Source of the DNA: an uncultured Solirubrobacteraceae bacterium
GTDB lineage: Bacteria > Actinomycetota > Thermoleophilia > Solirubrobacterales > Solirubrobacteraceae
Assembly: GCA_964588985.1 (NCBI GenBank)
Contig: CAZPQW010000001.1
Span: forward strand, 192,001-256,000
Direction: 5' to 3'
Length of the DNA stretch: 64,000 nucleotides
Positions 7,910-26,465 of this stretch are shown here, in pieces. The notes beneath the pieces were generated by a model. It was not told where the DNA came from, did not search any database, and saw only the letters and a program-made list of their open reading frames with translations. The translations under genes and the position numbers were made by a program. Numbering within the stretch: position 1 is the stretch's first letter; each line of letters opens with the position of its first letter.

Positions 7910-8788
7910 TCAAGGGCAAATTCCGCCTGTAGAGGGCCGGTCCGGTTGTGAGACGACCGCGAATCTCGTCAGGTCGTCGTAGAGGGCGACAGCCTCGTCA
8001 TCTTCGACAAGATCTCTCCAGTCGTCGGTTCGCGATCTGACGAGGCGATCTTCAAAGAAGTTAGCCGCGACGTCGTCGCTGTAGCCGTGGTGACGTGTGC
8101 AGCGAATCACCTGATCGGCGAAGTCGGGGCTATCGAATAGCGCTATCGGACAGTCATGGCTCTGCGCAAAGCCCAGCAGCGCTCGGTTGTAGGTCTTCCA
8201 GAGGGCGATGGCCTGCCGGTTCGTCATCGGCTCGCCACGCCGCACCAGCGATTCGGCGACATCGATCGGGTTCCGAACGGTCGCCATCGGATTGATCGAC
8301 ACGCCATCCCACAGATCGAGCATGAGGAGCATTCTCGGGTCCTTCAATACGCATCGTCTCCCGGCGCACTGACTGATGATGCGGTTTCGATCCGCCATGT
8401 GGGCCTTGAGATATTTGACCGCGGTCTTTGGCGGTTCGCGCCACGATGACGCGTTCACCTGAAGCACTCGGTTAGTAAGCGCCGTCAGCTCGACCGGCTC
8501 GCGTGTGCCCCGCTTGTTGTCGCCGGTCCCGTCGGAGGCGACCGTTCCAGGCACCGTGAAGCCAAGGTCCTCGAGAATCCCGACGGCCGCAGACGTGCCG
8601 CTCCGGTGCATACCGAAAACGACGAGAACGGGGTCGTGTGGTGGGGCATCGGACTTCGGGGCTCGATACCGCAATCGCCACGCAGCTCGCTGCAGGGCAT
8701 ATCCAGAGAGCCGTAGCCGTTCGTTGAGCGAGGTGGGCTGGTCGGTATATGGAAATGAGCCTCGTGGAGACTGCACGGGCTGCGGCAT
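7910..8788 (-). CDS. Sulfotransferase family protein
   Basis: VFGMHRSGTS PAPS-binding loop, LKDPR, VRNPIDVAESL; start set at ATG 8788, which overlaps the ABC stop (TGATG). Confidence 0.8.
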   Translation of the reverse strand: MPQPVQSPRGSFPYTDQPTSLNERLRLSGYALQRAAWRLRYRAPKSDAPPHDPVLVVFGMHRSGTSAAVGILEDLGFTVPGTVASDGTGDNKRGTREPVELTALTNRVLQVNASSWREPPKTAVKYLKAHMADRNRIISQCAGRRCVLKDPRMLLMLDLWDGVSINPMATVRNPIDVAESLVRRGEPMTNRQAIALWKTYNRALLGFAQSHDCPIALFDSPDFADQVIRCTRHHGYSDDVAANFFEDRLVRSRTDDWRDLVEDDEAVALYDDLTRFAVVSQPDRPSTGGICP

Positions 8789-10650
8789 CAAACCGGATCC
8801 CGGCCGGGTGCTCCCGTGGCTACAGTCGTTGCGGAGCGGTAGTAAGGGTTGGTTTGCTCCAGCTGCGTGATGGTGTCGAAAGCGTTCAGGTGGCCGTCGA
8901 GAATCACCATTACCCGGTCGCACATGTCGAGCGTAGACATGCGATGCGCGATGATGAATAGCGTGACCTTGTGCTTGAGCGCGGTCAGGGACTCCTGTAT
9001 GAGGACCTCCGAGCGTGGGTCGAGTGCACTGGTGGGCTCGTCCAAGATCAGGATTTCCGGTTGGGCGGCGAGTGCACGCGCCAGACAGATCCTCTGCTGT
9101 TGTCCGCCTGAGACCGCGTCTGCTCGAGGCCCGACGATCGTCTCATAGCCGTTCGGCCAACTCGCTATGTCCTCATGGATCCGGGCGAGTGTGGCAGCCC
9201 GAATCACAGCGTCATCGTCGAGGTCGCGGAAGTACCGTATGTTCTCCGCCACGGTCGCATGCACGAGGCGGGGTTCCTGCGGTACATATGCAACGCGCGA
9301 GTGCCAGTCGTCCTGACGGAACTGCTCGACGGGTACGTTGTTGATGAGATATCGCCCCGCGTCTGGTGCGCGCAGGTTCAGCAAGATCTGGACCAGCGTC
9401 GACTTTCCTGCACCTGATGGACCGATCACACCAACGGCCTCGCTTCCACGGGCCTCGAAGGTGATATCGGACAGCACGGGCCGGCCTGGTTGGTAAGCGA
9501 ACGACACGTGCTCGAACTTCAAGGTCAGCACTTTCTGCATCGGCAACGAGCCGCTTGCTCGACTGCTTGCCGAATAGCGCTGCTCGGCCTCATCCAGGCG
9601 CTCGATGAACGGGGCGGCCTGACGAACGAATGTGTAGGAGCCCTGGATCTGCTGACCGTAGAGGCCGGCCCGCACGAGCAGCAGGACCACCGCTCCCAGC
9701 GATGCCACGTGGCTGCTTCCGGCCTCGTACAGAACGCCAAGACCCCCAACGAGGACCAGGTAGACCAAGCTCTGATAGACGTTTGGAATCAGGCGGGCGA
9801 CGAACTGTGTGCGAAAAAACAGATCCTGAGCGATGGCGACGAAGCCATTGATGCGGCTGCGCTGAGCGTCGGCCACCCCGAATACCCGGGTCTCTTCGAT
9901 CACCCGATTGGCCTCGCTGACCCCACCGGCGTAGGACATCTGCGCCTGCGACAGCGACCTCGAATGCCGAGCGCCCATTGCGTTTATCGGTCGCAGAAGA
10001 GAGAAGAGCAGGATGGCGGCCGCGAGTACGACGATGGCGGCCACGATGTTCAGGGCCAGCGCCGAGACGACCAGAACGGCGAAGGTGAAAAGCGAGGAGA
10101 TCAACGTCGTCGCCTGGAGCGCTCCCTGGCTGGCCTGCATAATCTGACTTGTCATGATCTCCTGCAGATGTCCCTCGCGGTCGCGCGACTGCATCTCCCA
10201 GGAGGCGTCGGTGAAAGACTCGAACATGCGTCTACGCAGGCGCCCCTGCACTTCGGCGGCGATGCGCGCGGGAAGCCACGAGATCAATACTTGAAGCGCG
10301 ATGCGAACGACGGCTAGGGCGAACGCGATGGCCAGCAGGGCGCCGACCGACGCGTTTGCATGCAGCGGCCCGATTTCAAGATGAACTCGCGTAACCCTGT
10401 TGACGAGTGTCGTCGCCACCTGGGCCACGATCGCGAGGACGCCGGCTTCGGCGAACCCCGAGATCACCGAGCCGATCGCCAGTGCCACGATCGACCGGCG
10501 CCGATCGCCGAGCAGCGGGCGCAACTGCGACCACACCGACAACCGCAGTGGTGTTGTCACAGGTTCGGACGGTCCAAGAGGTCTGGTTCCGGGATCCACC
10601 CGCGAGCGGAACGCAGCCCATCTCTTGCGGCCAATCGTGTCGTCAGCCAT
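8788..10650 (-). CDS. ABC exporter, fused TMD-NBD (MsbA/PglK-like)
   Basis: Multiple TM helices; GPSGAGKST, VSGGQQQR, ILDEPTSALD, IAHR. Confidence 0.92.
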   Translation of the reverse strand: MADDTIGRKRWAAFRSRVDPGTRPLGPSEPVTTPLRLSVWSQLRPLLGDRRRSIVALAIGSVISGFAEAGVLAIVAQVATTLVNRVTRVHLEIGPLHANASVGALLAIAFALAVVRIALQVLISWLPARIAAEVQGRLRRRMFESFTDASWEMQSRDREGHLQEIMTSQIMQASQGALQATTLISSLFTFAVLVVSALALNIVAAIVVLAAAILLFSLLRPINAMGARHSRSLSQAQMSYAGGVSEANRVIEETRVFGVADAQRSRINGFVAIAQDLFFRTQFVARLIPNVYQSLVYLVLVGGLGVLYEAGSSHVASLGAVVLLLVRAGLYGQQIQGSYTFVRQAAPFIERLDEAEQRYSASSRASGSLPMQKVLTLKFEHVSFAYQPGRPVLSDITFEARGSEAVGVIGPSGAGKSTLVQILLNLRAPDAGRYLINNVPVEQFRQDDWHSRVAYVPQEPRLVHATVAENIRYFRDLDDDAVIRAATLARIHEDIASWPNGYETIVGPRADAVSGGQQQRICLARALAAQPEILILDEPTSALDPRSEVLIQESLTALKHKVTLFIIAHRMSTLDMCDRVMVILDGHLNAFDTITQLEQTNPYYRSATTVATGAPGRDPV

Positions 10651-10877: not shown

Positions 10878-11840
10878 TCAGTCCTCCGAGGTTCCGAAAA
10901 CCTCACTGCTTCCATGACGAACGCGGTGTCGTAGTGCGGACATCATCAGCAGGAGGCCAAATGGCAGGCCGTTCATGATGTAGCGCCGCGCGAGGCGACG
11001 TGTGGGTTCTTGGCTGAGGCGATACGCCCACTCCAGCCCGAGGCGGCAGATCCAGGCCGGTGGGCGCGACAGGTCCCCTGTCGCATAGCTGAGACTGATG
11101 CCCACGCCGAGGAACGATGCGCCTGGCAGGGAGCTGCGCAGGGAGCGAATCAGGAGATCCTGCTTCGGAAACCCAAGCGCCACGAACACGACATGGGGCG
11201 CCGTCTCGACGAGTTGACGCTGAATTCGGTGTAGCTCCTGCTCGTCGCTCTCAAAACCCACGGGAGGACAGGTCGTGCCCACGATGTCGAGATTTGGATA
11301 GCGGTCCTGGAAAACCTTCGCCGCTCGCTCGGCGACGCCGGAGTTGCCGCCGAGGAGAAAGAGCGTCTGCCCGCGGGCGCTCATCGCGTCGCACATGGAC
11401 CAGACCATGCTCGACCCGGACACGCGTTCCGGGAGCGGCGCGTCGGCGAGACGGCTCGCCCAGATCAGCGGCATCCCGTCGGCGACGACCATGTCGGCCT
11501 CGTCGATCAGGCTCTTGGCGATCGGTTCGCGACGGTAGCGGCGGAGATGATCGAGGTTTGCGGTGATCGTCCAATGCCCCAGGCCTGCATCGGCCGCGTC
11601 GAGGATCGTCCGCACCGCGGTCTCTTCGGTCACGACCGCTATCGGCGCTCCCATCAGGCGCACGTGCCGCTCGGGCCCGGCTGATACTTCATCGGTTGAG
11701 AATCCGGGTATCAAGGTCTGAGCCGTGGAAGGCGGGTCGCTGTTAGCACGCGGCGATGGCGATACGGTAGCCAGCGCACTGGAGGGGCGCCCCCGGCTTG
11801 TGAGCATGCCTACGATCGTCTGCACGCTCCAGCGACTCAA
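10878..11840 (-). CDS. WecB/TagA/CpsF family glycosyltransferase; true start uncertain
   Basis: TANLDH, ADGMP, ERVSGS, FVALGFPKQD, GLEWAYRL. Confidence 0.88.
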   Translation of the reverse strand: MSRWSVQTIVGMLTSRGRPSSALATVSPSPRANSDPPSTAQTLIPGFSTDEVSAGPERHVRLMGAPIAVVTEETAVRTILDAADAGLGHWTITANLDHLRRYRREPIAKSLIDEADMVVADGMPLIWASRLADAPLPERVSGSSMVWSMCDAMSARGQTLFLLGGNSGVAERAAKVFQDRYPNLDIVGTTCPPVGFESDEQELHRIQRQLVETAPHVVFVALGFPKQDLLIRSLRSSLPGASFLGVGISLSYATGDLSRPPAWICRLGLEWAYRLSQEPTRRLARRYIMNGLPFGLLLMMSALRHRVRHGSSEVFGTSED

Positions 11841-11899: not shown

Positions 11900-12601
11900 C
11901 TATCGCGTCACGGTCGACGTCTGCCCCACCGGTTCCCCTCCCAGCGCCAGGATACCCATCCCCAGCCCTCGCTCCGGATCCAGGATCAGGCCCACCGCCT
12001 CGTTGCGGGAGCGCACGCCCAGCTTGCCGAACGCCGACGACAGGTGGCTCTTGACCGTGCTCTCCGCGAGGAACAGCTGTGCTGCGATCTGGCTGTTCAT
12101 ATAGCCCATCACGACCAGTCCCAGAATCTGCTTCTCCCGCGAGGAGAGAGCCGGCGGCTGGATCTGGCGCCAGTGGTCGCGCGGCACGCAGGCCTGGCCG
12201 GCCTGCACCGCCTGCAGGCATGGGCACAAAGCCGTGTCGATGTCGTCCAAGAGCACCACGCCGGCAGCTCCCGCGGCCAGGGCGGAGCGCACGGCCCAGC
12301 GCTCGATGTCGGCGCAGACGATCACGATCGGCGTCTGCACGAAGTGCTGTGCAAGCGGCTCGACGAGTCCCGCTGGCGCAGAGGCCGTGTCCGACCTCCA
12401 GAGCACGATCGCCGCGAGACACTGCCCTTCGCTCTCGTCGAGCAGTTCCTCCACGCTGTCGAAGACGGCGATCTCCAACGCCAGCCCGCTGAGGCTCTCC
12501 GCGATCCGCTCGCCCGGTCCGTCGCCGACGACCAGCGCCACCCGTCCTCGCGCTACCTCCGCGTTCGGCGCCTTCCGTGTCGCGATGTGGGTCCTGGACA
12601 C
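11900..12601 (-). CDS. LuxR/NarL-type HTH regulator with degenerate receiver domain
   Basis: LSSREKQIL...GYMNSQIAAQLFLAESTVKSHLSSAFGKLGVRSR. Confidence 0.88.
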   Translation of the reverse strand: MSRTHIATRKAPNAEVARGRVALVVGDGPGERIAESLSGLALEIAVFDSVEELLDESEGQCLAAIVLWRSDTASAPAGLVEPLAQHFVQTPIVIVCADIERWAVRSALAAGAAGVVLLDDIDTALCPCLQAVQAGQACVPRDHWRQIQPPALSSREKQILGLVVMGYMNSQIAAQLFLAESTVKSHLSSAFGKLGVRSRNEAVGLILDPERGLGMGILALGGEPVGQTSTVTR

Positions 12602-12661
12602 AGATGACTAACGGTGGGCCTGCGCTCAGACTTGCGAAGCTCGAGCTCGAGCCCGCCGATC

Positions 12662-13285
12662 TCAGCCGATCTCAGGTAGAGACTCCTCCGGAGAGATGTG
12701 AAGGATGCCGGGGCCCAGGCCGCTCTCTCGGTCGAGGATCAGCTCGGCGGCCGCGCTGCGGGACTTCACGCCCAGCTTCTGAAACGCCGAGGAGAGGTGG
12801 TTCTTGACGTTGCTTTCGCTCACGAACAGCTTGCGTGCGATCTCGGCGTTGGAGAAGTCCAGGACGATCATCGCCAGGATCTGACGCTCGCGTGGCGACA
12901 GGGGAGGCCTGTCGACGATCTGTCGGATCGCCTTGGGCATCACGCACTGCCCGACCGCTACGGCCGCGAGCGTCGGCATCAGCGTGTGCTCGATGTCGGC
13001 GACCATCACCGCGCCCTCCAGGCGGGCGGCGAGAACGCGTGCGCCCCGCGGGCTGGGCGTGTCCTTCAGCACGACCACCAGGGGGCCGTTGTGCTCCTCG
13101 CGCACCGTCGAGAGGCTCGCGATCTCCTCTCCCGTCGCGCTCACCCAGCCGAGCAGCCCGATCTCGCTCGCGTCGGAGCTGCCGCGCTCGGCGTGGGTTG
13201 AGCCAGGTATGAGGGCCTGCACCGCGGGCCAGATCGTGGCTCCGTCCCCCAGCAGCGAGACGTGGTAGTCGGGAGAGCCGCTCAT
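12662..13285 (-). CDS. LuxR/NarL-type HTH regulator with degenerate receiver domain
   Basis: LSPRERQIL...SNAEIARKLFVSESNVKNHLSSAFQKLGVKSR. Confidence 0.88.
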   Translation of the reverse strand: MSGSPDYHVSLLGDGATIWPAVQALIPGSTHAERGSSDASEIGLLGWVSATGEEIASLSTVREEHNGPLVVVLKDTPSPRGARVLAARLEGAVMVADIEHTLMPTLAAVAVGQCVMPKAIRQIVDRPPLSPRERQILAMIVLDFSNAEIARKLFVSESNVKNHLSSAFQKLGVKSRSAAAELILDRESGLGPGILHISPEESLPEIG

Positions 13286-13330: not shown

Positions 13331-13370
13331 GCACATGTCGGTCGGTCCCGCGGGACCGACCGACATGTGC
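13331..13370 (-). terminator. Perfect 40-bp palindrome downstream of the lasso precursor; probable terminator or mRNA-stabilising hairpin
   Basis: GCACATGTCGGTCGGTCCCG|CGGGACCGACCGACATGTGC; followed by GCTTTAAT on the minus strand. Confidence 0.7.
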
Positions 13371-13396: not shown

Positions 13397-13549
13397 CTAC
13401 GGCGTGGAGAAGGTCAGATCCTTTTTCGGGGTGTGAATCGGGAAGGCGGCGTCGGTCGATTCGCCTTCGTGACTACCCGCGGTGAGTTCCGCGAGGTCCC
13501 CGTGATCCTCGATCCTGGGGCTCTCGTACGTGGGGGTGTCCTTCTCCAT
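13397..13549 (-). CDS. Lasso peptide precursor (50 aa): MEKDTPTYESPRIEDHGDLAELTA-GSHEGESTDAAFPIHTPKKDLTFSTP
   Basis: Hand-translated; SD AAGGAAGG upstream; leader YxxP..G motif, Thr at -2, core Gly1 with Asp9; lies directly downstream of the cyclase gene. Confidence 0.92.
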   Translation of the reverse strand: MEKDTPTYESPRIEDHGDLAELTAGSHEGESTDAAFPIHTPKKDLTFSTP

Positions 13550-13581
13550 GAGCTTCCTTCCTTAGGTAGGTAAGAGGGGGA

Positions 13582-13609
13582 ATGATAGGGACGCTCCCGT
13601 GGAGCGCAA
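13582..13609 (-). promoter_or_regulatory. Putative sigma70-type promoter for the precursor gene
   Basis: TTGCGC-N16-TATCAT on the minus strand in the cyclase-precursor gap. Confidence 0.5.
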
Positions 13610-13641
13610 GACCCGAAAAAGTACCGGGTCCGAATTTGCTC

Positions 13642-15465
13642 CTATCCGCGACGCGCAGCCCCTTCGAGCAGTTCGCACGGATACTCCGGGCGCTCGAGCG
13701 CCCGGAGCCACGCGTCGGCCAGGCCGACGTGCCACAGTCGGCGAGCGGCCCGACTGTCGCGAGGATTCGAACCTTCCCGCAAGAGCTGCTCCAGGGTCTC
13801 GGCTCGGACGAACGCGCGCACCGGCGCATCGTCGCGGGCTGGGCCGTCGGCGAGCAGGGTTCCGTCGGCTGCGAGCCCGGCGGGCAGCAGCGCGGTGAAG
13901 AAGCTCTTCGCGTGGCGGGTGCGTATCGCCTCGGGGATGTGGCCGGCGAGCGCGTCGCGCAGCAGCGCGCGGTCGCGAACCGGGTCGAACTGCATCTGAG
14001 GGGGAGTGGAGAGCACCGTGCGCAGCAGATCGACGTCGAACTGGAAGGGATGGCGTCCATCGACCCGCTCGTCGATCGCCTCGCGGCGAAAGTGGGCCGA
14101 CACGCCGAGTTTCTCGCCCGCCTCGGTCAGGTCCTCCGCCAGCGATCGCCACCACACAGGGCCGTCGAGCCGTGTTCCCCGCTGGTCGTCCACAAGCTCG
14201 AGGAGGGCCGATGCGTCGGTGGGCAGCAGCAGCGATCCCGGCGAGCCGGCGGCTCTCGGGCGCCGTTTCAGGCCCGCGGGCACCAGGCGGCGGACGCCGT
14301 ACACGCGAAGCGCTCGTAGGCGCATGCGCACGTCCGCCTCGGCCCCGACTTCCGGGATGCGCCGGGTGAGCCTCCAGGCCGCGAGCGCCCTCCCGCCGCG
14401 CAGCATGTCGGCGATCAGATAGGGCGCGAATCCGAACAGCTCATCGCCTCCCTCGCCGTCGAGCATAACGTCCACGCCGAGCCGGCGGGCGCTCGCCAGC
14501 AGCGGCTTCCACACGAACAGGTTCGGCGTGGCCGGCGGAAGCTTCCAGCGATCGATGTGCTCGAGCGCCGGCGCCAGGATCGAGGCTCGATCGTCGAAGG
14601 GAACCAGCTCGACGGGCATGCCGGTGTGACGCGCCGTCGCCTCGATCAAATCCCGCTCGTCGGTCTCGGGGTGGGTGGGGAAGATCGCGCCGAGCGCGAG
14701 CGCTCGACTCACGGAGCCCTTCCGCGCCGCGAGCCCCGCCGCCACGCAGGCCGAGTCGAGGCCGCCGCTGAGACGCACCGCGGGCTGGTGCGCTCCCTGG
14801 GCCGCTCGCTGCACCGCGTCAAACGCCGCGGTGCGCAGACGTTCGGCCGCCTCCTCCCGCGATCCGGAGACGACGCCCTCGTAACAGGGGCGCCAGTAGG
14901 GCTCGATCGTCATCCCGTCCACGGCGAGTAGGACCCTGTGTGCCGGTGGGATGCGCGCGATGCCCTCGAACATGCTGCGCCCGGCGGGGACGCTGCCGCG
15001 CTCGATCCACTGCGCCAGCGCCAGACGATCGGGTCCGGGGGCGCTCGGCAGCAGATCCACGATGACGCGCTCGTGTTCTGCGAACAGAGCTCCGCCGCCC
15101 ATGCGAGCCTGCACCAGCGGCCGGCCGCCGAGCTGGTCGCGCACGATCGTCGCGACCCCGCGTTCGCCGTCGTAGGTCACCACGACGAACTCCCCGCGAA
15201 GGAGCTCGCAGGCGCCTGGGCCGAGCCGCGCGTGCGCTCGAGCGATCACAGCGGGCACCCCCGCGGTGGGGGGCAGGCCGAACCGGTCGCGCAGCGCGTC
15301 CGCGTTGCTCAGCCGTCCGGAGATCCAGCAGCGCCAGCTTCCGTCGACGTCGCCCTCGGCGCCCACGACCGCCAGCTGCCCGACGCGCTCGGGCGTATCG
15401 CCGGCACGCCTCGCGCCAAGCTCGAGCAGCTCGACCGATCGCTCGCCCCACGCTGCCGCGAACAT
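13642..15465 (-). CDS. Lasso peptide cyclase (asparagine synthetase-like, C protein)
   Basis: LRGEF, RDQLGGRPL, LSGGLDS and DGEGGDELFG motifs; no N-terminal catalytic Cys; clustered with B2, RRE and precursor. Confidence 0.9.
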   Translation of the reverse strand: MFAAAWGERSVELLELGARRAGDTPERVGQLAVVGAEGDVDGSWRCWISGRLSNADALRDRFGLPPTAGVPAVIARAHARLGPGACELLRGEFVVVTYDGERGVATIVRDQLGGRPLVQARMGGGALFAEHERVIVDLLPSAPGPDRLALAQWIERGSVPAGRSMFEGIARIPPAHRVLLAVDGMTIEPYWRPCYEGVVSGSREEAAERLRTAAFDAVQRAAQGAHQPAVRLSGGLDSACVAAGLAARKGSVSRALALGAIFPTHPETDERDLIEATARHTGMPVELVPFDDRASILAPALEHIDRWKLPPATPNLFVWKPLLASARRLGVDVMLDGEGGDELFGFAPYLIADMLRGGRALAAWRLTRRIPEVGAEADVRMRLRALRVYGVRRLVPAGLKRRPRAAGSPGSLLLPTDASALLELVDDQRGTRLDGPVWWRSLAEDLTEAGEKLGVSAHFRREAIDERVDGRHPFQFDVDLLRTVLSTPPQMQFDPVRDRALLRDALAGHIPEAIRTRHAKSFFTALLPAGLAADGTLLADGPARDDAPVRAFVRAETLEQLLREGSNPRDSRAARRLWHVGLADAWLRALERPEYPCELLEGAARRG

Positions 15466-15469
15466 CGAT

Positions 15470-16504
15470 TCAGAGTTCCAGCGTGTGCTCGATGAGATTG
15501 TCGGCCAGCTGCGTGGCGTTCACGTCGGGCTGGACGCGCAGGCGGTAGATCCGCTCCGTGGCGGCAAGGGCGACCGCCAGGTCGAGATGGCGGACGAGGC
15601 GCTCGGGTGTGCGCACGGACAGGTTGAAGGTGCTCGCGAGCAGCGCGAAGGGGTCGACCGCGTCGATGCGCTCGACGAGAGGGCCATCCGCGGAGCGCTC
15701 CAGCAGGAACAGCTCGCCGAATGGCGCCGGCGACGCGTTCAGGCTGGGGCTGTAGCGCTGCTTGCCGAGGAAGCTCGTGGCGGGGCCGAGGGCCGTGCGC
15801 TCCCGCGTCGAGAGACGATCGTGCTCGGCGGCGCGCAGTTGCAGCAGGGCCGCGCCCGGATGGGCCAGCAGCTCGGGGCCGCACTGCTCGAGCGCCACCG
15901 TGTCGTCGCTCAGCAGCGTCGCTCCGTGGCGCAGCAGGGCCGCCGCCAGCGAGGACTTGCCGGCCCCGGGCGGACCCGTGAACAGCGCCGCCCTGCCTCG
16001 CAGCACCACGCCCGAGGCGTGCAGCACCTCGAACCCCCTCAGGGTCGCCGCAAGCGGCAGGGCCTGGGCGGTGAGGAGGGCGGTCCACTCCGAGCTTCCA
16101 TCCTCCGGGTCGCAGATCACCTCGGTCCCGTCCAGGGCGATAAGGATCCGCGCGAATCCCGGCGCATGCAGGAGGTAGCCGGCGGGAGGAGCGAAATCGA
16201 CGGTGAGCAGTACCGCGTCCCCGTCGCGCAGCTCGCGCACGCGTCCGGCCGCGTGCGCGGCGACGCTCCAGCGTCGCGAGAGCTCTCGCGGATCGAGCCT
16301 CACACGCGTCGATGGCCGCGAGTCGCAAGGAGAGGCCGGGTGCCCAGGGGCGGGAGCGTCCGGGTCGCGGGCGCCGTTAGCATCGAGCTGAGCGATGCCG
16401 GGGATATCGATGCTGGGGTCGACTTCGAGTCGAAGGCCAAACGCGGCGCCGTGGGCCGCTTGCTCGCGGACCGGGCTGTCGGGCGCCTCAGGCTCGATCT
16501 GCAT
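15470..16504 (-). CDS. HPr kinase-like protein (candidate lasso tailoring kinase; promoter-distal copy)
   Basis: LHASGV...GPPGAGKSS...LLSDD motifs. Confidence 0.85.
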   Translation of the reverse strand: MQIEPEAPDSPVREQAAHGAAFGLRLEVDPSIDIPGIAQLDANGARDPDAPAPGHPASPCDSRPSTRVRLDPRELSRRWSVAAHAAGRVRELRDGDAVLLTVDFAPPAGYLLHAPGFARILIALDGTEVICDPEDGSSEWTALLTAQALPLAATLRGFEVLHASGVVLRGRAALFTGPPGAGKSSLAAALLRHGATLLSDDTVALEQCGPELLAHPGAALLQLRAAEHDRLSTRERTALGPATSFLGKQRYSPSLNASPAPFGELFLLERSADGPLVERIDAVDPFALLASTFNLSVRTPERLVRHLDLAVALAATERIYRLRVQPDVNATQLADNLIEHTLEL

Positions 16505-16826
16505 CCACCGTCTCGATCAGCCCGCGCTCGAGCAGCCCACGGGTGAGGGCGAGCAGATCGCTCTGGATCTGCTTCTGCTCGAGGCCGTACTCGCCGGCGA
16601 GCACAGGCGCCGCGTCACCGATCGTGGACGCCGCCTCGAGCGCCTCGAGCATCCTGCCCGCGGTGGGGTTCAGTCCGTGGTATCTGCCCGTCCTGAGGTT
16701 GAGGACGACCGTCTCCGAGACGAAGCTGCGATGGACGACGTGCTGGGGCAGCCGCGCTCGCGCTTGCAGGAGCTGTTGGTCGGAAAGCTGGGACATGGTC
16801 GTGGTATCGACGTTTTTGTCGGTCAT
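16488..16826 (-). CDS. PqqD/RRE family leader-binding protein (lasso B1)
   Basis: ETVVLNLRTGRYHGLNPTAGRMLEAL...DLLALTRGLLERGLI; ATG at 16826 lies just after the permease stop. Confidence 0.9.
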   Translation of the reverse strand: MTDKNVDTTTMSQLSDQQLLQARARLPQHVVHRSFVSETVVLNLRTGRYHGLNPTAGRMLEALEAASTIGDAAPVLAGEYGLEQKQIQSDLLALTRGLLERGLIETVDADRA

Positions 16827-16827
16827 C

Positions 16828-17637
16828 TCAATACTCGGCAATCGTTCCGGAGCGTTGACCGTAGCGAATCGATGCGCGCAGCAGCATGAGGCCGGCGGGT
16901 AGCAACACGGCGCAGAAGCCCACCAGCTTGAGCAGCTCCACCCCCGCGGGGTGAACCAGCGGTGTGTCGATCAGCAGGTGGCGCAGCAGATCGGTCGCCG
17001 GTGTGAACGGCTGCACGTCGGACGCCCAGCGAATCCACCCCGGCAGCACGGCGGTCGGGAAGTACAGTCCGCCGACGATCGCAACGCCGGCGACGATGAA
17101 CTGGGTCGCGCTGGATGCCTGCTTGAACGCCATCACCAGCGCCACGAGGAAGAACGCGAACGGCATGAATGCGAGCGTGCCGAGCAGCGCCACCGGAATC
17201 GCGAGCACCGCTGTGCTCGCCAGGGGAAGCCCGAATATCACCGCGGCCAGTGTGAGCATCAGGATGCCGCTGAAGAACGCGTTGATGAGGGGAAACAGCA
17301 TCGTGCCGAGTATCCCGTTGATCGGCCCGTGGGCACTCACGAGGAAACGCTCGATCGTGCCCGAGATGAGTTCCTGTCGCACCGTCACCGGCATCACGCC
17401 CATGGATATGGTGAGGATCTGGACGATCACCAGGCCCACGATCACGAACCCGAAATAGCCGCCCGGAGAGTGAATGCTCCTGGCGGTGACGAGATGGCTG
17501 ATGTAGTAGAAGAGGGTGATCGAGAACAGCGGGCCGAGGAACTGCGCGACGAGCTGGCTGCGGTAGCTGGCGAACAGGATCGCGTCGCGGCGGATGATCC
17601 CCCACATGGCTTCGCACCACAGGGCCACAGGACTCAT
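16828..17637 (-). CDS. ABC-2 type transporter permease
   Basis: Starts MSPVALWCEAMWGIIRRD (ATGA overlap with the ATPase); about 6 TM helices; EL..GTIERFL, GGLYFP..VLPGW. Confidence 0.88.
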   Translation of the reverse strand: MSPVALWCEAMWGIIRRDAILFASYRSQLVAQFLGPLFSITLFYYISHLVTARSIHSPGGYFGFVIVGLVIVQILTISMGVMPVTVRQELISGTIERFLVSAHGPINGILGTMLFPLINAFFSGILMLTLAAVIFGLPLASTAVLAIPVALLGTLAFMPFAFFLVALVMAFKQASSATQFIVAGVAIVGGLYFPTAVLPGWIRWASDVQPFTPATDLLRHLLIDTPLVHPAGVELLKLVGFCAVLLPAGLMLLRASIRYGQRSGTIAEY

Positions 17638-18371
17638 TGGATTTGCTCCAGGCAGCCCTCGGTGAGGGTGTAGCTGGCGTCGCACGCGATCACGCGATCC
17701 TCGCCTCGCGGCGAGCACCACAGCACCGTCGAGCCGCGGCTCGACGCCCGCGCGATCTGCTCGTTGAGCAGCCGGTAGCCATCGTCGTCGAGCGAGTTGC
17801 GCGGCTCGTCGAGCAACACCACCCGAGGTTCGTGCAGGAACGCCATCGCCAGCCGGATGCGCTGGCGCTGGCCCATCGACATGCGGTCCACGCGGCGTGT
17901 GGCGAACTCCATAAGTCCGAATCGTTGCAGACTGTCGGCAACCAGCTCGGCGCGTCGCTCGCGGGGCACATAGGCCAGCCGGCCCCAGTAGTCGAGCTGC
18001 TGAGAGACGCGCATGCGCGCCTGTAGGCCACGGTCGCCCGCCGACAGAAAGCCGATCTGGCGTCGGTAGAGGCCCCCCCTCGATGCCGGCGTGAGCTCGC
18101 CGATGCGTACGGTCCCTCGCTGTGGCAGCAGGATCCCGGCGGCGAGCCGCAGCAGTGTGGTCTTGCCGACGCCGTTGCGACCGCCGACCCACGTGACCTC
18201 GCCCGCGCGCAGGGTCAGGCTGACGTCGTCCAGCACCGGCGGCTTGGGGCCCTTCCACCGGTGGTGCAGACCCTCGAGCTCGAGGATCGGCTCGCCCGCG
18301 CCGGCGGCGGGCGGCGGATCGGAAAACGGGGCTGACACCGAGGAAGCGGACATCGAAGGAGAGCTTTTCAC
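17634..18371 (-). CDS. ABC transporter ATP-binding protein
   Basis: GRNGVGKTT, MSMGQRQR, LLDEP. Confidence 0.9.
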   Translation of the reverse strand: MKSSPSMSASSVSAPFSDPPPAAGAGEPILELEGLHHRWKGPKPPVLDDVSLTLRAGEVTWVGGRNGVGKTTLLRLAAGILLPQRGTVRIGELTPASRGGLYRRQIGFLSAGDRGLQARMRVSQQLDYWGRLAYVPRERRAELVADSLQRFGLMEFATRRVDRMSMGQRQRIRLAMAFLHEPRVVLLDEPRNSLDDDGYRLLNEQIARASSRGSTVLWCSPRGEDRVIACDASYTLTEGCLEQIQ

Positions 18372-19351
18372 AGCTCAGCCGCCAGGAGCGTGTCTGCGAG
18401 GACGCTAGGGGGGGTGTCGAGGTTGGCCGACAGTCGCCACAGCTCCACGCTCGAGGCGATCGTGCTCGCGAGCTCGAACCGCGCTCGCTCGCGCTCGGGG
18501 AGGCGGGGGAAGCGCAGCAGCGAGTCCAGCAGCGGGCCCAGCTGGCTCTCGATCCTCTCCAGCGACGGCAGCGCCCCGGCCCCCTGCGATTCGGGCCGTC
18601 GGTCGAGCACGACCAGCGCCTTCAGCGGCAGCGGCTCGGGGTGCACTGGAACCGCGATCCAGCGCTCGTCGCCGATCGAGAGGATCGTCGCTCGGGGGTC
18701 GGCGTCATCACGCGCGCGAATCCCATCGGCGGGGACGGTCATCAGCGGGGGAGCAGGATGGGCGAGAGGGGCCTGGGCTCCACGGGGCTCCAGCACGAGC
18801 ACGTCGTCCGCCATCAGCGCCAGCCCGCGCCCGAGGAGCTCCGCGAGCAGGGTGCTCTTGCCGCCGCCGGTCGCCGCGGCGATCGCGATCGCGCCGTCAG
18901 GTGTGGCGATCGCGCCCGCGTGCAGCGCCTCATAGCCCCGCAGCAGCGCGACCGTGAACAGCGCCGAGTCGAGCACCACCCGCCACCACGAGGGATCGGC
19001 GGGGTCCGACGGTGCGCACCGCAGCACGCTCGCGTCGGCCCGGAGGTGGTGGACCGCTCGGGTCTGCGCCGACGGGACGCCGCTGGGATCAGGTGGCGCG
19101 CCGTGCACGAAGCGATGATCCCCCTCGGCTCCTCGCTCCACCACGAATGGGGCGCCGTCGATCTCGCCCGCCCAGCCGACCGCCTCGAAGCCGGACCAGC
19201 TCTCCTGGATGGCCTGGGGGGTGACGGACAGGAGCCGCAGTTCGGGCTCCTCGCGCAGGGGTCGTGCCTGCCACGCGCCCGGGGGGGGCGCATCGCTTCG
19301 TAGGCTGAGGCCGAACGCGGCCAGGCCCGGCTGGGGCACTGCGTGCGTCAG
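18368..19351 (-). CDS. HPr kinase-like protein (candidate lasso tailoring kinase; promoter-proximal copy); start CTG 19351 or GTG 19339
   Basis: AAFGL N-terminus shared with its paralog; LHAGAI...AATGGGKST...MADD motifs. Confidence 0.82.
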   Translation of the reverse strand: MTHAVPQPGLAAFGLSLRSDAPPPGAWQARPLREEPELRLLSVTPQAIQESWSGFEAVGWAGEIDGAPFVVERGAEGDHRFVHGAPPDPSGVPSAQTRAVHHLRADASVLRCAPSDPADPSWWRVVLDSALFTVALLRGYEALHAGAIATPDGAIAIAAATGGGKSTLLAELLGRGLALMADDVLVLEPRGAQAPLAHPAPPLMTVPADGIRARDDADPRATILSIGDERWIAVPVHPEPLPLKALVVLDRRPESQGAGALPSLERIESQLGPLLDSLLRFPRLPERERARFELASTIASSVELWRLSANLDTPPSVLADTLLAAEL

Positions 19352-19824
19352 AGCTCGACCAGTCGGCCGAAGGACTCCGTGCCGGGGTCCAGCACCGCGA
19401 TTCCGTCGTGCTCGACCCACGCGTGCGCGAGGAACTCCGGATCCGCCTGCGCTCCGATCACCAGCTTCGCCTCTATGCCGCGCCTGGCGAGCAGACGTGT
19501 CAGCACGAGCGAGCGGGCCAGGCAGCGGGTGTCTCCGGGGACGTGCGCGAGCAGACGCGTCACCGCATGACCGAGACGGTAGGCCTCCGCGAGCGAGTTC
19601 GTGGCCGAAGGCGCGGTCGACGGCGATCGCGAGCGCAGGGCGGCCACAACGTCGGCGATCGGGGCGCGGCGCAGCGTGCGTCGCGCCTGCACGTATGCCG
19701 CGAGTATCTCGATCGCGAGTCGCGCGCGGGCCGGGTGGCTCAGGCGCTTTGGGCGTGCGCTGCGGGCTGCTGCGATCGTCGGGACCGCAGCAGCGCAGCG
19801 AGGCTCAGGGCTTGGGACTGCCAT
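19348..19824 (-). CDS. Lasso peptide leader peptidase (B2, transglutaminase-like)
   Basis: TRCLARSL...LVIG...AHAWVE with Cys/His catalytic residues. Confidence 0.92.
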   Translation of the reverse strand: MAVPSPEPRCAAAVPTIAAARSARPKRLSHPARARLAIEILAAYVQARRTLRRAPIADVVAALRSRSPSTAPSATNSLAEAYRLGHAVTRLLAHVPGDTRCLARSLVLTRLLARRGIEAKLVIGAQADPEFLAHAWVEHDGIAVLDPGTESFGRLVEL

Positions 19825-19842
19825 CGGCGGCCCTGTGACGCG

Positions 19843-20688
19843 TCAGCCGAGTTTCTTGGGGTGCGATTTTTTGGCTTTCTTCGCGCACGTGTGGTAAGAG
19901 CGGGTGGCCGACAGATGGTGCCCGAGGACCGTCGTCGCCGCGATCTTGATCGTGAACTTGCCAAGCGGGAAGCCCTTGAGGTTGATCGTCGCGACGATGT
20001 AGTTGCCCTTGCGCGCCGTCCTGATTTTTTTGCCCTTGATCGATACGAGCACCTTCTTGAAGGGGTCGTATTTCGGGTCGAGCAGGTGGATGCGGAAGAG
20101 CCTCGCGCTCAGGCACTTCTTGCTGCTCGGCAGCGACAGAGTCTCTTTCAGGCCGGCGGTGCCGGAGTTCCCGGTGGGCAGGGGAGCGATCAGAGCGGAG
20201 CTCGTGCAGCCATAGCTGGCGCCGACGCCCGGGCTGCCGGACGGGATGCTCGGCGTTCCGGTACCGGGGCGGCTCAGGCATACGCGCAGGTAGCGCGACC
20301 CGCTGGCTTCTTCGACCACTCGCCACGCCGTGGGTCCGACGAACGTCGGGTCTTCAGTGCAGTCTTCTCCGGATGTCGTGCTTTTGAACCACTGGTGGGA
20401 GCCTAGGTAGGAGCCGTCCGGTTGGAGGGTGATTTCTTTCCAGATCTTCTGTCCGGCGGGGTGGGTGCAGGTCGCGAACTTTGTCGGCGAGACGACGACG
20501 CCTTCGAACTTCCCGTTGCCTTCCGGCTGGATGGCGATCTGGCCGCCGTTGAAGGACCAGATCCCTTCGATGTTCGTCGTCGCAGCTGTGGCTACGCCGG
20601 CGGTGAGCAGGAGGATGGTCGCGGCGATCGCCAGTAGCAGCGATGAGCGGCGCCTTGTGCGTGTGGGAGTGTTCTGAGTTCTAGGCAT
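19843..20688 (-). CDS. Secreted protein of unknown function with Lys-rich C-terminal domain
   Basis: Signal peptide (RRRSSLLLAIAATILLLTAGVATA); several Cys; C-terminus ...ATRSYHTCAKKAKK; ends 18 bp before the B2 gene. Confidence 0.75.
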   Translation of the reverse strand: MPRTQNTPTRTRRRSSLLLAIAATILLLTAGVATAATTNIEGIWSFNGGQIAIQPEGNGKFEGVVVSPTKFATCTHPAGQKIWKEITLQPDGSYLGSHQWFKSTTSGEDCTEDPTFVGPTAWRVVEEASGSRYLRVCLSRPGTGTPSIPSGSPGVGASYGCTSSALIAPLPTGNSGTAGLKETLSLPSSKKCLSARLFRIHLLDPKYDPFKKVLVSIKGKKIRTARKGNYIVATINLKGFPLGKFTIKIAATTVLGHHLSATRSYHTCAKKAKKSHPKKLG

Positions 20689-20774
20689 TGCTCTATCAAC
20701 GCGGGGCCGATTCGATTCTTCCACGCATCCGAGTGGGGGCTCGGGGCCGCTCGCTTGTATGCTCGGTTCGACGC

Positions 20775-21530
20775 ATGCGCAACTGCATCATCCTCGGCTC
20801 GGGCCGTAGCGGGACGAGCATGCTCGCGGGCATGTTGCACGGCGCCGGGTATTACATGGGCGACCAGCTGCTCGAGCCCACGCCCGCAAACCCGAAGGGC
20901 TATTTCGAGAGCCAGGAGGTCAACCTCCTCAACGACGAGCTCATCGCGTCCATTGTGCCCGTCAGGCCGCGAGTGCCGCTCGGATGCCTGTTCCCCTGGC
21001 GACTGCCGGCTGGCCTGCTGTGGTTGGCGAGCATCGACGCCGACGTGCAGATACGTCCGAGCCCCGAGCAGCTGAGTCGCATCCGCGGGCTCGTCGCCAA
21101 AGAGCCGTTCTGCTTCAAGGATCCCCGCTTCTGCTACACGTTGGACGCATGGCGTCTCGCGTCGGAGGACGTCGTCTTCCTGTGTGTGTTTCGAGAGCCG
21201 GGCCGCACGGCGACGAGCATGAGGCAGGACGTTCGCGACAGGCCCTACCGCGGTTTCTACCTGACCAGAGCCCGTGCGCTACGGGTGTGGACGTCAATGT
21301 ACGAGCACGTGCTCCAATCATCAGGACAAGACGGAAGATGGCTGTTTGTCCACTATGATCAGATCCTCGACGGCAGCGCGATGGCTCGCATCGAAAGCGC
21401 TGTTGAGGCCGGGGTCAGCAGCAGCTCGATCGATCCCAGCCTGAAGCGCTCTCGCGACGACTCAAGCCATCTGCCACAACGTACGATCCAGGTGTATCAG
21501 CGACTGTGCGAGCTTGCCGGAGCGAACTGA
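20775..21530 (+). CDS. Sulfotransferase family protein
   Basis: MRNCIILGSGRSGTSMLAG, NPKGYFES, FKDPRF. Confidence 0.85.
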   Translation: MRNCIILGSGRSGTSMLAGMLHGAGYYMGDQLLEPTPANPKGYFESQEVNLLNDELIASIVPVRPRVPLGCLFPWRLPAGLLWLASIDADVQIRPSPEQLSRIRGLVAKEPFCFKDPRFCYTLDAWRLASEDVVFLCVFREPGRTATSMRQDVRDRPYRGFYLTRARALRVWTSMYEHVLQSSGQDGRWLFVHYDQILDGSAMARIESAVEAGVSSSSIDPSLKRSRDDSSHLPQRTIQVYQRLCELAGAN

Positions 21531-21557: not shown

Positions 21558-22511
21558 GTGACCACACAGCAGCAGACAGCAACGACGCTACCGATCTGCG
21601 TCATCATCCCGGTCTACAACCGCGCGCATCTCCTGGAGCGCGCCATCGGGAGCGTCTGGGCACAGAGACCGATGCTTCCGGCGGAGGTCCTCGTGGTGGA
21701 CGACGGATCCGACGACGACACGCCTGAGGTGGCAAAACGGTTCGGGGCCCGGATCGTCAGCCATCCCGAGAACCTGGGTCTGGCGGCCGCACGCAACACC
21801 GGGCTGCGTTCGACGTCGCAGCCGTGGGTGGCGCTCCTGGATTCCGACGACGAGTGGCTGCCCGGCCATCTCGCCCACCTCTGGCGCATACGAGACGACC
21901 ACGCGCTCGTCGCCGGCGCGGCTCTGCGCTGTGGTGTCAACCCCAACGACGACCGGTACCACGGTCCGAGCGGCAAGAAGCCGAAGATCCTCCACTCCGG
22001 CGATCAGCTCGTCGTCCCCGAGAACATCATTCCCGTGAGCGCTTCGATGATCAAGCGCGAGGTCGCCATTGAGGCCGGTGGCTTTCAGGCTCGGCACGGC
22101 GTCACCGAGGATCTGGACCTCTGGCTGCGCGTGCTCGCCAACCACACGGCCATCTGCTCCCCGGAGGTCAGCATCATCTACCACATGCACGGCGAGCAGA
22201 TGTCGTCCGCGCTGTCGCAGATGCTGCTCGGCCACTATGCGGCGGGCGAGGCTCACAGGGTGCGGACCGACGGGTCGCGGATACCGATTCGGCGATGGGA
22301 GGGCGCCTCGGCGTTCTACAACCTGCGCGACGCCCAGCTGTCCGGCGAACTGGGGCGGATGATGCGATGGGGGCTCTACATCCTCGCTAGGCCCTACCGC
22401 CTGAGGGGCTCGCTCGAACTGGTGGCGCAGCGCTACAACGGGATCCGGCGCGCCTCTGCCCTGCGGGCGGCTGGCGTCGGGCCGAATCGCCGTGGGAGCG
22501 AGAGGGCGTGA
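21558..22511 (+). CDS. Glycosyltransferase family 2
   Basis: IIPVYNR, VVDDGSDD, GLAAARN, LDSDD, EDLDLW. Confidence 0.92.
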   Translation: MTTQQQTATTLPICVIIPVYNRAHLLERAIGSVWAQRPMLPAEVLVVDDGSDDDTPEVAKRFGARIVSHPENLGLAAARNTGLRSTSQPWVALLDSDDEWLPGHLAHLWRIRDDHALVAGAALRCGVNPNDDRYHGPSGKKPKILHSGDQLVVPENIIPVSASMIKREVAIEAGGFQARHGVTEDLDLWLRVLANHTAICSPEVSIIYHMHGEQMSSALSQMLLGHYAAGEAHRVRTDGSRIPIRRWEGASAFYNLRDAQLSGELGRMMRWGLYILARPYRLRGSLELVAQRYNGIRRASALRAAGVGPNRRGSERA

Positions 22512-25297: not shown

Positions 25298-25400
25298 ATC
25301 CATCCCTTTCCAGTACGTTGCCCCCCGCGCGGGCCGCGCGAGCAGGCGCAAGAGTACAGGATGTTGGAACTTTTTGGTTACGCTGATGTGACTGGAGCAG

Positions 25401-26465
25401 CTACAGCGCTGCGATCGCCTCAACACACCGCTCCGCGGCGTGGCCGTCGCCGTACAGCACCGGACGCTCGGCCGGAGCGCCGCGCTCGAGCGCCGCGAGC
25501 GCCGCGTCCGTGTCGAGGTCCACGAGGATGTTCCAGCCGGACTGGACCGTCTCGACCCACTCGGTGTTTGCTCTGAGGGTCACGCAGGGCACCCCGGCAA
25601 GGTACGCCTCCTTCTGGACGCCGCCCGAGTCGGTGAGCACCGCGCGGGCCTGGCACACGAGCGCGCTGAACTCCGCGTAGCCCAGGGGCCCGGCCAGGCG
25701 CACTCCGTCGCTCTGCTCGAGCCGTGCCAGCAGCTTGGCGTCCCGCAGGCGCGCGCGGGTGCGTGGGTGCAGCGGGAAGAGGACCGGGCCTGGAAGGGCT
25801 TGGATGAGCTCCACCAGTCCGTTCAGGCGCTCGGGATCGTCGACGTTGCCCGCGCGGTGGGCCGTCAACAGCAGGTAGTCGCCGGGGCTGAGGCCGTACG
25901 CGGCGGGCACGCCCGCGTCGGCGCGTGCGGCTGGCTGCCAGCGCATCGCCACGTCGACCATCACGTCGCCCACCACCTCGACCGTGCCTGCCACCGACTC
26001 CGCGCGAAGATTGTCAGCGGCGGTCTGCGACGAGCACAGCAGCAGCTCGGCGAGGTGATCGCTGAGCACGCGGTTGAGCTCCTCCGGCATCGAGCGGTCG
26101 AACGAGCGCATCCCCGCCTCCACATGCACGACCGGAACGCCGACCTGCGCGGCCGCAAGCCCCCCCGCGAGCGTCGAGTTGGTGTCGCCGTAGACCAGCA
26201 CCGCATCCGGCGCGATCTCCGCCAGCAGCGGCTCCAGCGCGGCGAGCATCCGCGCGGTCTGTGCGGTGTTGCTGCCGCCGCCGATACCCAGCTCGCGGTC
26301 CGGGCGCGCGAGCCCCAGCTCGGTGAAGAACACCTGCGAGAGCGAGTCGTCGTAGTGCTGGCCGGTGTGCACGAGGATCTCCTCGTGGCGCTCGCGCAGC
26401 GGTCCGGACACCGCGGCCGCCTTGATGAACTGCGGCCGGTTGCCTACGACGGTGAGGATCTTCAC
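25401..26465 (-). CDS. wecB: Non-hydrolysing UDP-N-acetylglucosamine 2-epimerase (WecB/WbpI-like)
   Basis: GNRPQFIKAA, HTGQHYD, GDTNSTL, HVEAGMRS, MPEELNR, TDSGGVQKEA. Confidence 0.92.
   Translation of the reverse strand: MKILTVVGNRPQFIKAAAVSGPLRERHEEILVHTGQHYDDSLSQVFFTELGLARPDRELGIGGGSNTAQTARMLAALEPLLAEIAPDAVLVYGDTNSTLAGGLAAAQVGVPVVHVEAGMRSFDRSMPEELNRVLSDHLAELLLCSSQTAADNLRAESVAGTVEVVGDVMVDVAMRWQPAARADAGVPAAYGLSPGDYLLLTAHRAGNVDDPERLNGLVELIQALPGPVLFPLHPRTRARLRDAKLLARLEQSDGVRLAGPLGYAEFSALVCQARAVLTDSGGVQKEAYLAGVPCVTLRANTEWVETVQSGWNILVDLDTDAALAALERGAPAERPVLYGDGHAAERCVEAIAAL

Follow-up and report, generated by a model that had tools for sequence, protein, structure and literature searches.

In lasso-peptide gene clusters of the paeninodin type, kinases such as PadeK, ThcoK, and SyanK phosphorylate the C-terminal Ser of the linear precursor (PMC8498205). 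The pseudomycoidin cluster combines a kinase with a nucleotidyltransferase, and the phospho-Ser of a lasso peptide can carry hexoses (PMC8498205). A putative sulfotransferase gene stands at the start of some Firmicutes clusters (PMC8498205; PMC4289311). Popov et al. (Nat Commun, 2026; PMC13381572) reported paeninodin-like lasso clusters within the capsular polysaccharide loci of Bacilli and, in the same loci, a new family of linear polyphosphorylated peptides (LPPs), with two RiPP (ribosomally made, post-translationally modified peptide) recognition elements (RREs) and HprK kinases; they described the roles of these systems as unknown and a contribution to biofilms as tempting but untested. 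Here, we describe a lasso-peptide operon with two HPr-like kinases from an uncultured Solirubrobacteraceae bacterium (genome G000). It lies in a window, i.e., the whole analyzed stretch of 64,000 nucleotides (G000:C1:192001-256000, G+C 62–74%). The operon represents a conserved, Solirubrobacterales-specific cassette, whose position next to surface-glycan genes is itself conserved and specific rather than the result of a chance insertion.

The operon comprises nine tightly coupled minus-strand genes (13397-20688), as delineated by open reading frame (ORF) calls and Pfam and NCBIfam profiles, in the order secreted protein, leader peptidase B2, kinase K1, ATP-binding cassette (ABC) ATPase, ABC-2 permease, RRE (B1), kinase K2, cyclase C, and precursor (Table 1). 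Adjacent genes overlap or are separated by 4–18 nt, the sole exception being a 92-nt gap ahead of the precursor gene. Thus, the nine-gene lasso operon with two HPr-like kinases that had been proposed from the letters of the DNA alone is indeed present at these positions. It contains all parts of a split-B lasso cluster, namely a cyclase, a B2 peptidase with a discrete PqqD-like RRE, and a precursor with the usual features. The cyclase scores 107.6 bits (E-value 6.4e-31) against the lasso-specific profile NF033535, under its cut-off of 525. For the permease, a competing ORF in another frame (16823-17620) was rejected, its translation being Arg-rich junk.

The precursor, MEKDTPTYESPRIEDHGDLAELTAGSHEGESTDAAFPIHTPKKDLTFSTP, has a leader of residues 1–24 with the YxxP motif at residues 8–11 and Thr23 as the usual Thr at position -2, and a core of residues 25–50 that begins with Gly1 (Gly25), has Asp at core position 9, and ends in Ser-Thr-Pro. 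A search of the 10.8–21.7 kb region yielded no second precursor, as the YxxP pattern otherwise matched out-of-frame junk only. Precursors were found on the cassette strand of 67 homologous loci, and their key positions are strongly conserved: Asp9 in 66/67, Ala at -1 in 65/67, a C-terminal Pro in 61/67, and a terminal [ST]-x-Pro in 59/67. They fall into two types, Cys-free (22 loci) and two-Cys (44 loci), both of which retain Asp9 and mostly the [ST]-x-Pro end. The analogy with paeninodin and pseudomycoidin drawn in the sequence-only reading, which relied on a C-terminal Ser, therefore fails at this point, since neither the window precursor nor the Pro-ending majority of its relatives ends in Ser. 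Hence, the cassette is a variant of the kinase-tailored lasso clusters that misses their C-terminal-Ser rule. As the conserved Ser is not C-terminal but followed by x-Pro, either the site rule differs here or the substrate is not the one that the analogy predicts.

The two kinases are 30% identical over 228 residues (E-value 5e-18). In Pfam, K1 is only faintly kinase-like (E-value 0.028). The top solved relative of a K1 profile built from 21 orthologs is HprK/P (1jb1, 4.7e-6), and that of the K2 profile is HprK (3tqf, 1.3e-8), the latter alignment being confined to the P-loop region. The GK[ST], DD, and E..H positions are invariant in both paralogs (21 orthologs of K1 and 22 of K2). Both proteins score far under the TIGR04352 equivalog cut-off of 200 bits, and the thresholds for HprK/P proper are likewise not reached, with 28.6 bits against 240 for TIGR00679 and 27.1 and 14.4 bits against 33.3 for PF07475. 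Judged by their sequences, K1 and K2 are relatives of HprK/P and not members of that family.

In a tree of 153 kinase segments, obtained by a quick search with midpoint rooting and containing several long outgroup branches, the kinases that adjoin the secreted-protein gene form one clade (72 rows; Shimodaira–Hasegawa-like approximate likelihood-ratio test, SH-aLRT, 98). The kinases adjoining the cyclase form two groups, of 22 rows (SH-aLRT 100) and of 45 rows (86, below the 95 mark). All cassette kinases fall within a 140-row clade (SH-aLRT 97), separate from the 13 single kinases that belong to other families of Actinomycetota. We read K1 and K2 as products of an old duplication within the lineage, with both copies apparently maintained by selection.

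Compared with paeninodin-type clusters, the operon shares the split B1/B2 arrangement, the Asn-synthetase-like cyclase, the precursor with a YxxP leader, and a homolog of HPr kinase as the tailoring enzyme. However, it has two paralogous kinases instead of one, a Ser/Thr-x-Pro end instead of a C-terminal Ser, and an in-operon two-component ABC-2 exporter instead of the fused D exporter. It also adds a conserved secreted protein and LuxR regulators, includes no NTP_transf_5 gene in the cassette, and occurs in Actinomycetota (Solirubrobacterales), whereas the described hosts belong to Bacillota and Pseudomonadota. With the composite clusters of Bacilli (PMC13381572) it has in common the location of kinase-type RiPP genes within surface-polysaccharide loci and the two HprK-like kinases per neighborhood, and some relatives of the window operon contain two RREs as well. 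In Bacilli, however, there are two pathways with two precursors and a SipW-like peptidase, whereas here there is a single precursor, the kinases appear to stem from duplication within the lineage, and the position is more specific, directly upstream of an initiating transferase. The hallmarks of an LPP cluster (a SipW-like signal peptidase I, an NTP transferase, and its own LppA-type precursor) are missing; no signal-peptidase or NTP_transf_5 family member was detected among the window ORFs scanned. Finally, pseudomycoidin resembles the present system in pairing an HprK-like kinase with a lasso precursor and offers a precedent for sugar attachment via phosphate, but the cassette described here has no nucleotidyltransferase and its precursor has no C-terminal Ser.

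In a search with K2, 9 of the 24 same-genus genomes proved to contain kinase pairs at a spacing of approximately 3 kb, and 27 of a further 400 genomes from a phylum-wide sample gave a match (including G378 and G304, which were left out of later steps). All ten loci fetched from the genus have the secreted-protein gene, which lies beside K1 in 10/10. Those that are neither degraded nor cut by contig ends also encode K1, the ABC-2 pump, B1, B2, K2, the cyclase, and the precursor; the loci of G004, G006, and G019 are apparently partly degraded. With the secreted protein as bait, relatives were found in 166 loci of species-representative genomes, and the counts given below for 80 loci refer to the best 80 of these 166, all from Solirubrobacterales records of metagenome-assembled genomes (MAGs), where part of the gene shortfall is due to contig ends. 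Two or more kinases are encoded in 61/80 loci, and the full set of cyclase, two kinases, B1, and B2 in 54/80. Three gene orders were observed: in that of the window, B2 comes directly behind the secreted-protein gene; in another, a second RRE and B2 follow the precursor; and the commonest is B1-B2-K2-C. Two RREs occur in the genus relatives G022, G002, and G011. Two loci (L107:1014-4244 and L115:1787-4990) contain, on the opposite strand, a second, divergent cluster with a kinase and a cyclase, which has its own precursor with two Cys, ending in Cys-Ser/Thr-Lys.

A LuxR homolog follows the cassette in 62/80 loci. In the window, there are two LuxR genes (11900-13285), not counted in the sequence-only reading, which co-vary with the operon. 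The LuxR1 ortholog adjoins the lasso genes in all seven genus loci with sufficient flanks, and none was found at E ≤ 1e-20 in five of five lasso-less genomes of the genus; hence, we consider the LuxR regulator a part of the cassette.

The position of the cassette is most regular at its downstream end. There, a gene for a glycan-initiating enzyme (Bac_transf or TagA) comes first, starting within 3 kb on the same strand, in 39 of the 58 loci that could be evaluated, while upstream of the cassette such a gene was found in only 3/58, with 10 kb of upstream DNA available. Across the 3.4 Mb of G000, there are only 5 Bac_transf and 2 WecG genes. Homologs of the window glycan genes occur in 36/80 loci. 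Among the remaining 44, the flanks of 15 were annotated with Pfam, and 11 of these have other glycan genes (Bac_transf, GT2, GT4, Wzy_C, flippases, DegT); two more have only genes for synthesis of 3'-phosphoadenosine-5'-phosphosulfate (PAPS), and just two have no glycan, sulfotransferase, or PAPS genes. The upstream neighbors, in turn, vary between loci and include extracytoplasmic function (ECF) sigma factors, sulfotransferases, PAPS genes, and Gfo. If homologous operons mostly lacked glycan genes, the adjacency seen in the window could be put down to chance insertion; the downstream junction, the glycan-gene homologs, and the other glycan genes of the sampled loci all point the other way, and we take the position to be conserved and not a chance insertion.

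Glycan genes also accompany such kinases outside the order. Of 20 annotated loci around K2 homologs from other families of the phylum, 11 have glycan genes in the fetched stretch, and in 8 a gene of the NTP_transf_5 family lies directly beside the lasso kinase. Among 21 genomes, 8 from six families (G000, G142, G419, G066, G106, G180, G165, and G422, three of which are from one family) have a gene with a Wzz domain no more than 11 kb away from the kinase, with approximately 0.25 such cases expected from the 34 Wzz matches in the genomes concerned. Two loci, L062 (G419) and L071 (G180), contain clusters without a cyclase, formed by an HprK-like kinase and B2 (plus a PqqD RRE in L071). On one side, these genes directly adjoin those for a fused ABC exporter, a Wzy_C-TPR protein, Wzz, and a BY-kinase ATPase; on the other are a LuxR response regulator and a histidine kinase. 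In L066 (G066), from the same family, this set is complemented by a cyclase, NTP_transf_5, and a sulfotransferase.

The secreted protein, encoded by the first gene of the cassette, has 476 homologs, all annotated as hypothetical, with names that point to Solirubrobacteraceae. They share a signal peptide, which is rich in Arg-Arg in many cases, together with six invariant Cys, a Gly/Ser linker that varies in length, and a Lys-rich tail. In an AlphaFold2 model (pLDDT 76.7), structural alignment (VIA-align) of the predicted N-terminal eight-stranded barrel gives lipocalin 4inn (Z 9.2, residues 36–255) and avidins (Z 7–8) as top matches, and the predicted C-terminal domain resembles an immunoglobulin/fibronectin type III sandwich (Z 8–9; 6tn6 with Z 9.0 for residues 182–270). 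A Foldseek search of the model against the PDB produced no match at E ≤ 0.001 and only generic Ig-like rows, and the Protein Atlas returned only unnamed clusters of hypothetical proteins. Since the Z values barely exceed the background of 7–8 quoted for the tool, the "ligand-binding barrel" is a lead and not a finding. The secreted-protein gene is tandemly duplicated in 9/80 loci (L100, L109, L111, L116, L120, L124, L128, L136, and L156), and in 4 of the 15 sampled loci a gene for an ECF-type sigma factor is situated directly upstream of it.

Taken as a whole, these data are probably best explained by a conserved cassette for an exported, kinase-tailored lasso peptide that has an envelope or biofilm role or is co-regulated with such functions, an explanation that we adopt with moderate confidence. 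The RRE would bind the 50-aa precursor via its YxxP leader, B2 would cut after Thr-Ala, and the cyclase would close a 9-residue ring between Gly1 and Asp9; given established lasso biochemistry, these steps are expected because the corresponding families are present and Asp9 is retained. One or both kinases may phosphorylate the hydroxyl-rich C-terminal Ser-Thr-Pro of the linear precursor, by analogy with PadeK-type enzymes. As both are kept as old paralogs, we take them to be non-redundant, acting either at two sites or in two successive phosphoryl transfers. The ABC-2 pump would export the product, and the secreted protein might bind the peptide outside the cell, holding or sensing it at the anionic envelope; this is the weakest step, suggested by the ligand-binding type of the modeled barrel and by the polycationic tail. 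Because the cassette, together with LuxR, has a fixed place directly upstream of the initiating transferase gene in a cell-surface glycopolymer locus and is read in the same direction, its product most likely works in, or is co-regulated with, envelope or biofilm biology rather than diffusing freely as an antibiotic. Genetically, cassette and glycan locus are coupled, and we infer a functional coupling as well. A more specific version of this explanation, in which the doubly tailored phospho-lasso peptide is exported, is captured by the lipocalin-like protein, itself docked through its polycationic tail on an anionic wall polymer, and serves either as a LuxR-mediated signal to the glycan operon or as a structural or covalent component of the polymer, seems doubtful.

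Several observations weigh against an envelope role. The fold assignment of the secreted protein is only slightly above background, as noted, and every locus found with this protein as bait is a MAG record. The epimerase and Gfo genes of the flank are retained, next to a variable gene content, in all five lasso-less genomes of the genus that were compared, and Wzc is nearby in two of the five. Since neither the cassette nor LuxR is present in these genomes, the cassette is a dispensable accessory module, located in a variable island that may simply be accumulating accessory genes. As the 80 loci are related, the proportion of 39/58 measures conservation and not independent events. In the phylum-wide set, 7 of the 20 kinase loci have no glycan gene, 5 of these 7 being on short or cut contigs. 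Two-kinase lasso clusters of the sister genera G346 and G184 lack the secreted protein; the G346 cluster has no glycan neighbors, and that of G184 has only an in-operon sulfotransferase. Finally, as the precursors lack the C-terminal Ser that characterized kinases need, the substrate of the kinases is not certain. The G184 operon (L070:8579-13992, same family, another genus) is arranged as kinase, Sulfotransfer_1, PqqD, B2, kinase, and cyclase, in a non-glycan neighborhood (PDH, Lon, EAL, aldehyde dehydrogenase).

Many of these points would be accommodated if the product were an ordinary lasso peptide used in competition, i.e., an antibiotic made by a self-contained cassette that has its biosynthesis, tailoring, and regulator genes and the pump as immunity, and if the glycan island were a hot spot of gene gain and loss in which the cassette landed and was then vertically inherited. 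The presence of the cassette in only 9 of the 24 genomes of the genus, the variable content beside the epimerase and Gfo genes of the lasso-less relatives, and the G346 and G184 clusters are consistent with this explanation, and the shared position in 80 related loci may reflect a single ancestral insertion. However, the same-strand junction persists despite the exchange of TagA for Bac_transf and despite differing upstream neighbors, and the asymmetry of 39 downstream against 3 upstream cases is unexpected for a hot spot. Moreover, kinase-type clusters are found near Wzz or Wzc in five other families of Actinomycetota, and the same is reported for Bacilli (PMC13381572). We therefore regard an antibiotic function as a tenable possibility, but a rather unlikely one, and retain the envelope role as the better explanation.

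It can also be argued that only one kinase acts on the peptide, while the other, most likely K1, targets the secreted protein, LuxR, or a sugar, or is a non-catalytic partner. Indeed, K1 directly follows the secreted-protein gene or is separated from it by B2, and K2 adjoins the cyclase; many type-II precursors have a single conserved hydroxyl residue in the C-terminal motif; and HprK proper is a protein kinase. On the other hand, the P-loop and DD motifs are kept in both paralogs, and no second leader-bearing substrate was found in the 10.8–21.7 kb region. Furthermore, the two sub-clades into which each kinase clade divides match the two precursor types, although this may be co-inheritance only. 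A division of labor of this kind is in our opinion distinctly unlikely, and two kinases with separate tasks on the peptide remain the preferred arrangement.

Sulfation and sugar transfer deserve separate consideration, since the peptide might itself be a substrate of the glycan machinery, either by receiving sugars or sulfate or by acting as the polymer's covalent primer or anchor. A sulfotransferase gene lies within 1.5 kb of the cassette in 10/80 loci. In six of the loci (L123, L132, L150, L157, L159, and L160), a Sulfotransfer_3 gene on the same strand precedes the secreted-protein gene by approximately 100–134 bp, and such a gene is directly beside the cassette in 4 of the 15 sampled loci. 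PAPS-synthesis genes (CysN/CysC fusions, CysD-like genes, and adenosine-5'-phosphosulfate kinase) lie a few kb upstream in 3 of these 15, and the G184 two-kinase operon contains a sulfotransferase inside it. Sulfotransferases are, however, absent from 64/80 loci and from all 10 genus relatives examined. Hence, the window sulfotransferase is an occasional neighbor of the cassette and not a core part. NTP_transf_5 was also considered as a regular neighbor and rejected, as it occurs within 10 kb of the cassette in only 2/80 loci. Thus, of the earlier proposal that the peptide is tied to capsule or exopolysaccharide synthesis, the conserved position beside glycan genes stands, while no evidence was seen for glycosylation or sulfation of the peptide or for its use as a primer or anchor. 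Although the glycan-initiating enzyme downstream, the sulfotransferase and PAPS genes, the Wzy_C-family proteins beside kinase clusters of other families, and the hexose-bearing phospho-Ser of pseudomycoidin (PMC8498205) all speak for the peptide as a glycan-machinery substrate, this is very unlikely given the rarity of the sulfotransferase, the scarcity of NTP_transf_5 (the known phospho-Ser-glycosylating enzyme, which here is 25 kb away), and a window core without Tyr.

The glycan genes surrounding the operon are listed in Table 1. Glycosyltransferases (GTs) are present on both flanks, in agreement with the sequence-only reading, whereas the sulfotransferases that it placed on both sides reduce to one on the right: a hidden Markov model built from 7 sulfotransferases revealed no further member at E ≤ 1 in the whole 64-kb window, including the left flank. 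On the left, the Wzc-like protein, TagA, and the fused ABC exporter were recovered as described there, while the assignment to GH79 stays below threshold. The order of TagA followed by a homolog of the fused ABC exporter is repeated in loci L085 and L101. No Bac_transf was detected in the window, where TagA occupies that place. The presence of a LytR_cpsA_psr ligase gene was also noted at 40762-41913, 20 kb to the right of the operon; together with the Big_1 protein, the 2-epimerase, and TagA, it fits a wall-linked secondary polymer rather than a free exopolysaccharide.

Leftward, the glycan island reaches at least 13 kb past the window edge, with genes for Wzy_C, an aldolase, Gfo, SIS, an FkbM methyltransferase, a CTP_transf_3 cytidylyltransferase of the CMP-sugar type, a member of the inositol-monophosphatase family, and GT2. 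The only NTP_transf_5 (PF14907) gene of the genome belongs to the same island (L165:7037-8200, i.e., G000:C1:179037-180200), 12.8 kb beyond the left edge of the window; the earlier statement that the window contains no nucleotidyltransferase gene is thus correct. Directly 3' of the precursor gene, the perfect inverted repeat is likely a transcript-end or stabilizing element. A scan for sigma-70 promoters and T-tract terminators gave nothing above shuffled sequences, and such a scan is uninformative in a high-GC organism.

Table 1. Features of the lasso operon, its flanks, and selected genes of homologous loci (window positions unless a locus is given).
Feature	Coordinates	Strand	Evidence and remarks
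Secreted 281-aa protein, first cassette gene	19843..20688	-	Signal peptide; without Pfam/NCBIfam family
Lasso leader peptidase B2, transglutaminase-like	19348..19824	-	NF033537 4.1e-21, 75.7 bits vs cut-off 33; PF13471 9.5e-22
HprK-like kinase 1 (K1)	18368..19420	-	TIGR04352 1.2e-7, below cut-off; true start probably some 15–25 codons past the GTG at 19420
ABC exporter ATPase	17634..18371	-	PF00005 7.7e-27; 4-nt overlaps with both neighbors
ABC-2 type permease	16828..17637	-	PF01061 3.5e-14; ATGA overlap with ATPase stop
RRE (B1), PqqD-like	16488..16841	-	PF05402 1.8e-13, 51 bits vs cut-off 23.4; NF033530 2.9e-11, below cut-off
HprK-like kinase 2 (K2)	15470..16504	-	TIGR04352 8.3e-10; PF07475 3.5e-6
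Lasso cyclase C, Asn-synthetase-like	13642..15465	-	PF00733 4.7e-30, above cut-off
Precursor A, 50 aa	13397..13549	-	NF033521 27.9 bits vs cut-off 19
Perfect 20+20 nt inverted repeat	13331..13370	.	Directly 3' of precursor
LuxR-type regulator 2, GerE helix-turn-helix	12662..13285	-	PF00196 1.3e-18
LuxR-type regulator 1, GerE helix-turn-helix, response-regulator-like N-terminus	11900..12601	-	PF00196 2.9e-18
WecG/TagA glycosyltransferase, first glycan gene downstream	10878..11840	-	PF03808 2.9e-51
Fused ABC exporter, MsbA-like	8788..10650	-	PF00005 3.8e-29, PF00664 1.1e-5; behind TagA
337-aa protein	7910-8923		Left flank; no family; orthologs beside fused ABC in G007
Wzc-like Wzz/GNVR/P-loop protein	6272-7882		Left flank
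519-aa protein	4528-6087		Left flank; sub-threshold GH79 C-domain match, PF16862 E 0.033; otherwise no family
GT2	3542-4501		Left flank
GT4	1378-2508		Left flank, then MptE-like gene
GT4	1-855		Left flank
Sulfotransferase (Sulfotransfer_3), divergent from operon	20688..21530	+	PF13469 2.1e-6, 28.6 bits vs cut-off 27; true start probably downstream of 20688
GT2	21558-22511		Right flank, then Gfo/Idh/MocA
562-aa protein, weak Big_1 domain	23738-25426		Right flank
UDP-GlcNAc 2-epimerase	25401-26465		Right flank; then succinate dehydrogenase and housekeeping genes
ECF-type sigma factor genes of homologous loci	L094:8941-9765, L144:9060-9713, L152:8689-9480, L154:9148-9768		
Sulfate-activation genes of homologous loci	L117:4493-8420, L122:5625-7994, L131:4359-7512		

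Little is known about the native roles that lasso peptides play, and they have mostly been studied as antibiotics. The cassette constitutes a large natural family, which belongs to an almost uncultured order of soil bacteria and covers at least 61 genomes at the species level; its lasso genes occupy a fixed position before the initiating enzyme of a surface-polymer locus. Two of its parts, the second paralogous kinase and the secreted barrel protein, are undescribed for lasso clusters in the literature searched; in the openly readable literature, subscription papers aside, no report was found of a lasso pathway with two paralogous kinases, of such a secreted protein, or of Solirubrobacterales lasso peptides. 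A case of a non-C-terminal Ser would widen the substrate rule of lasso kinases, if the kinases act there as proposed. The idea of a capsule or biofilm role, voiced for Bacilli in 2026, becomes experimentally testable with this family. If the version with a captured phospho-lasso peptide is true, there would be lasso peptides with a physiological role in building the envelope or biofilm, a role common to the kinase-type RiPP clusters of Actinomycetota and Bacillota.

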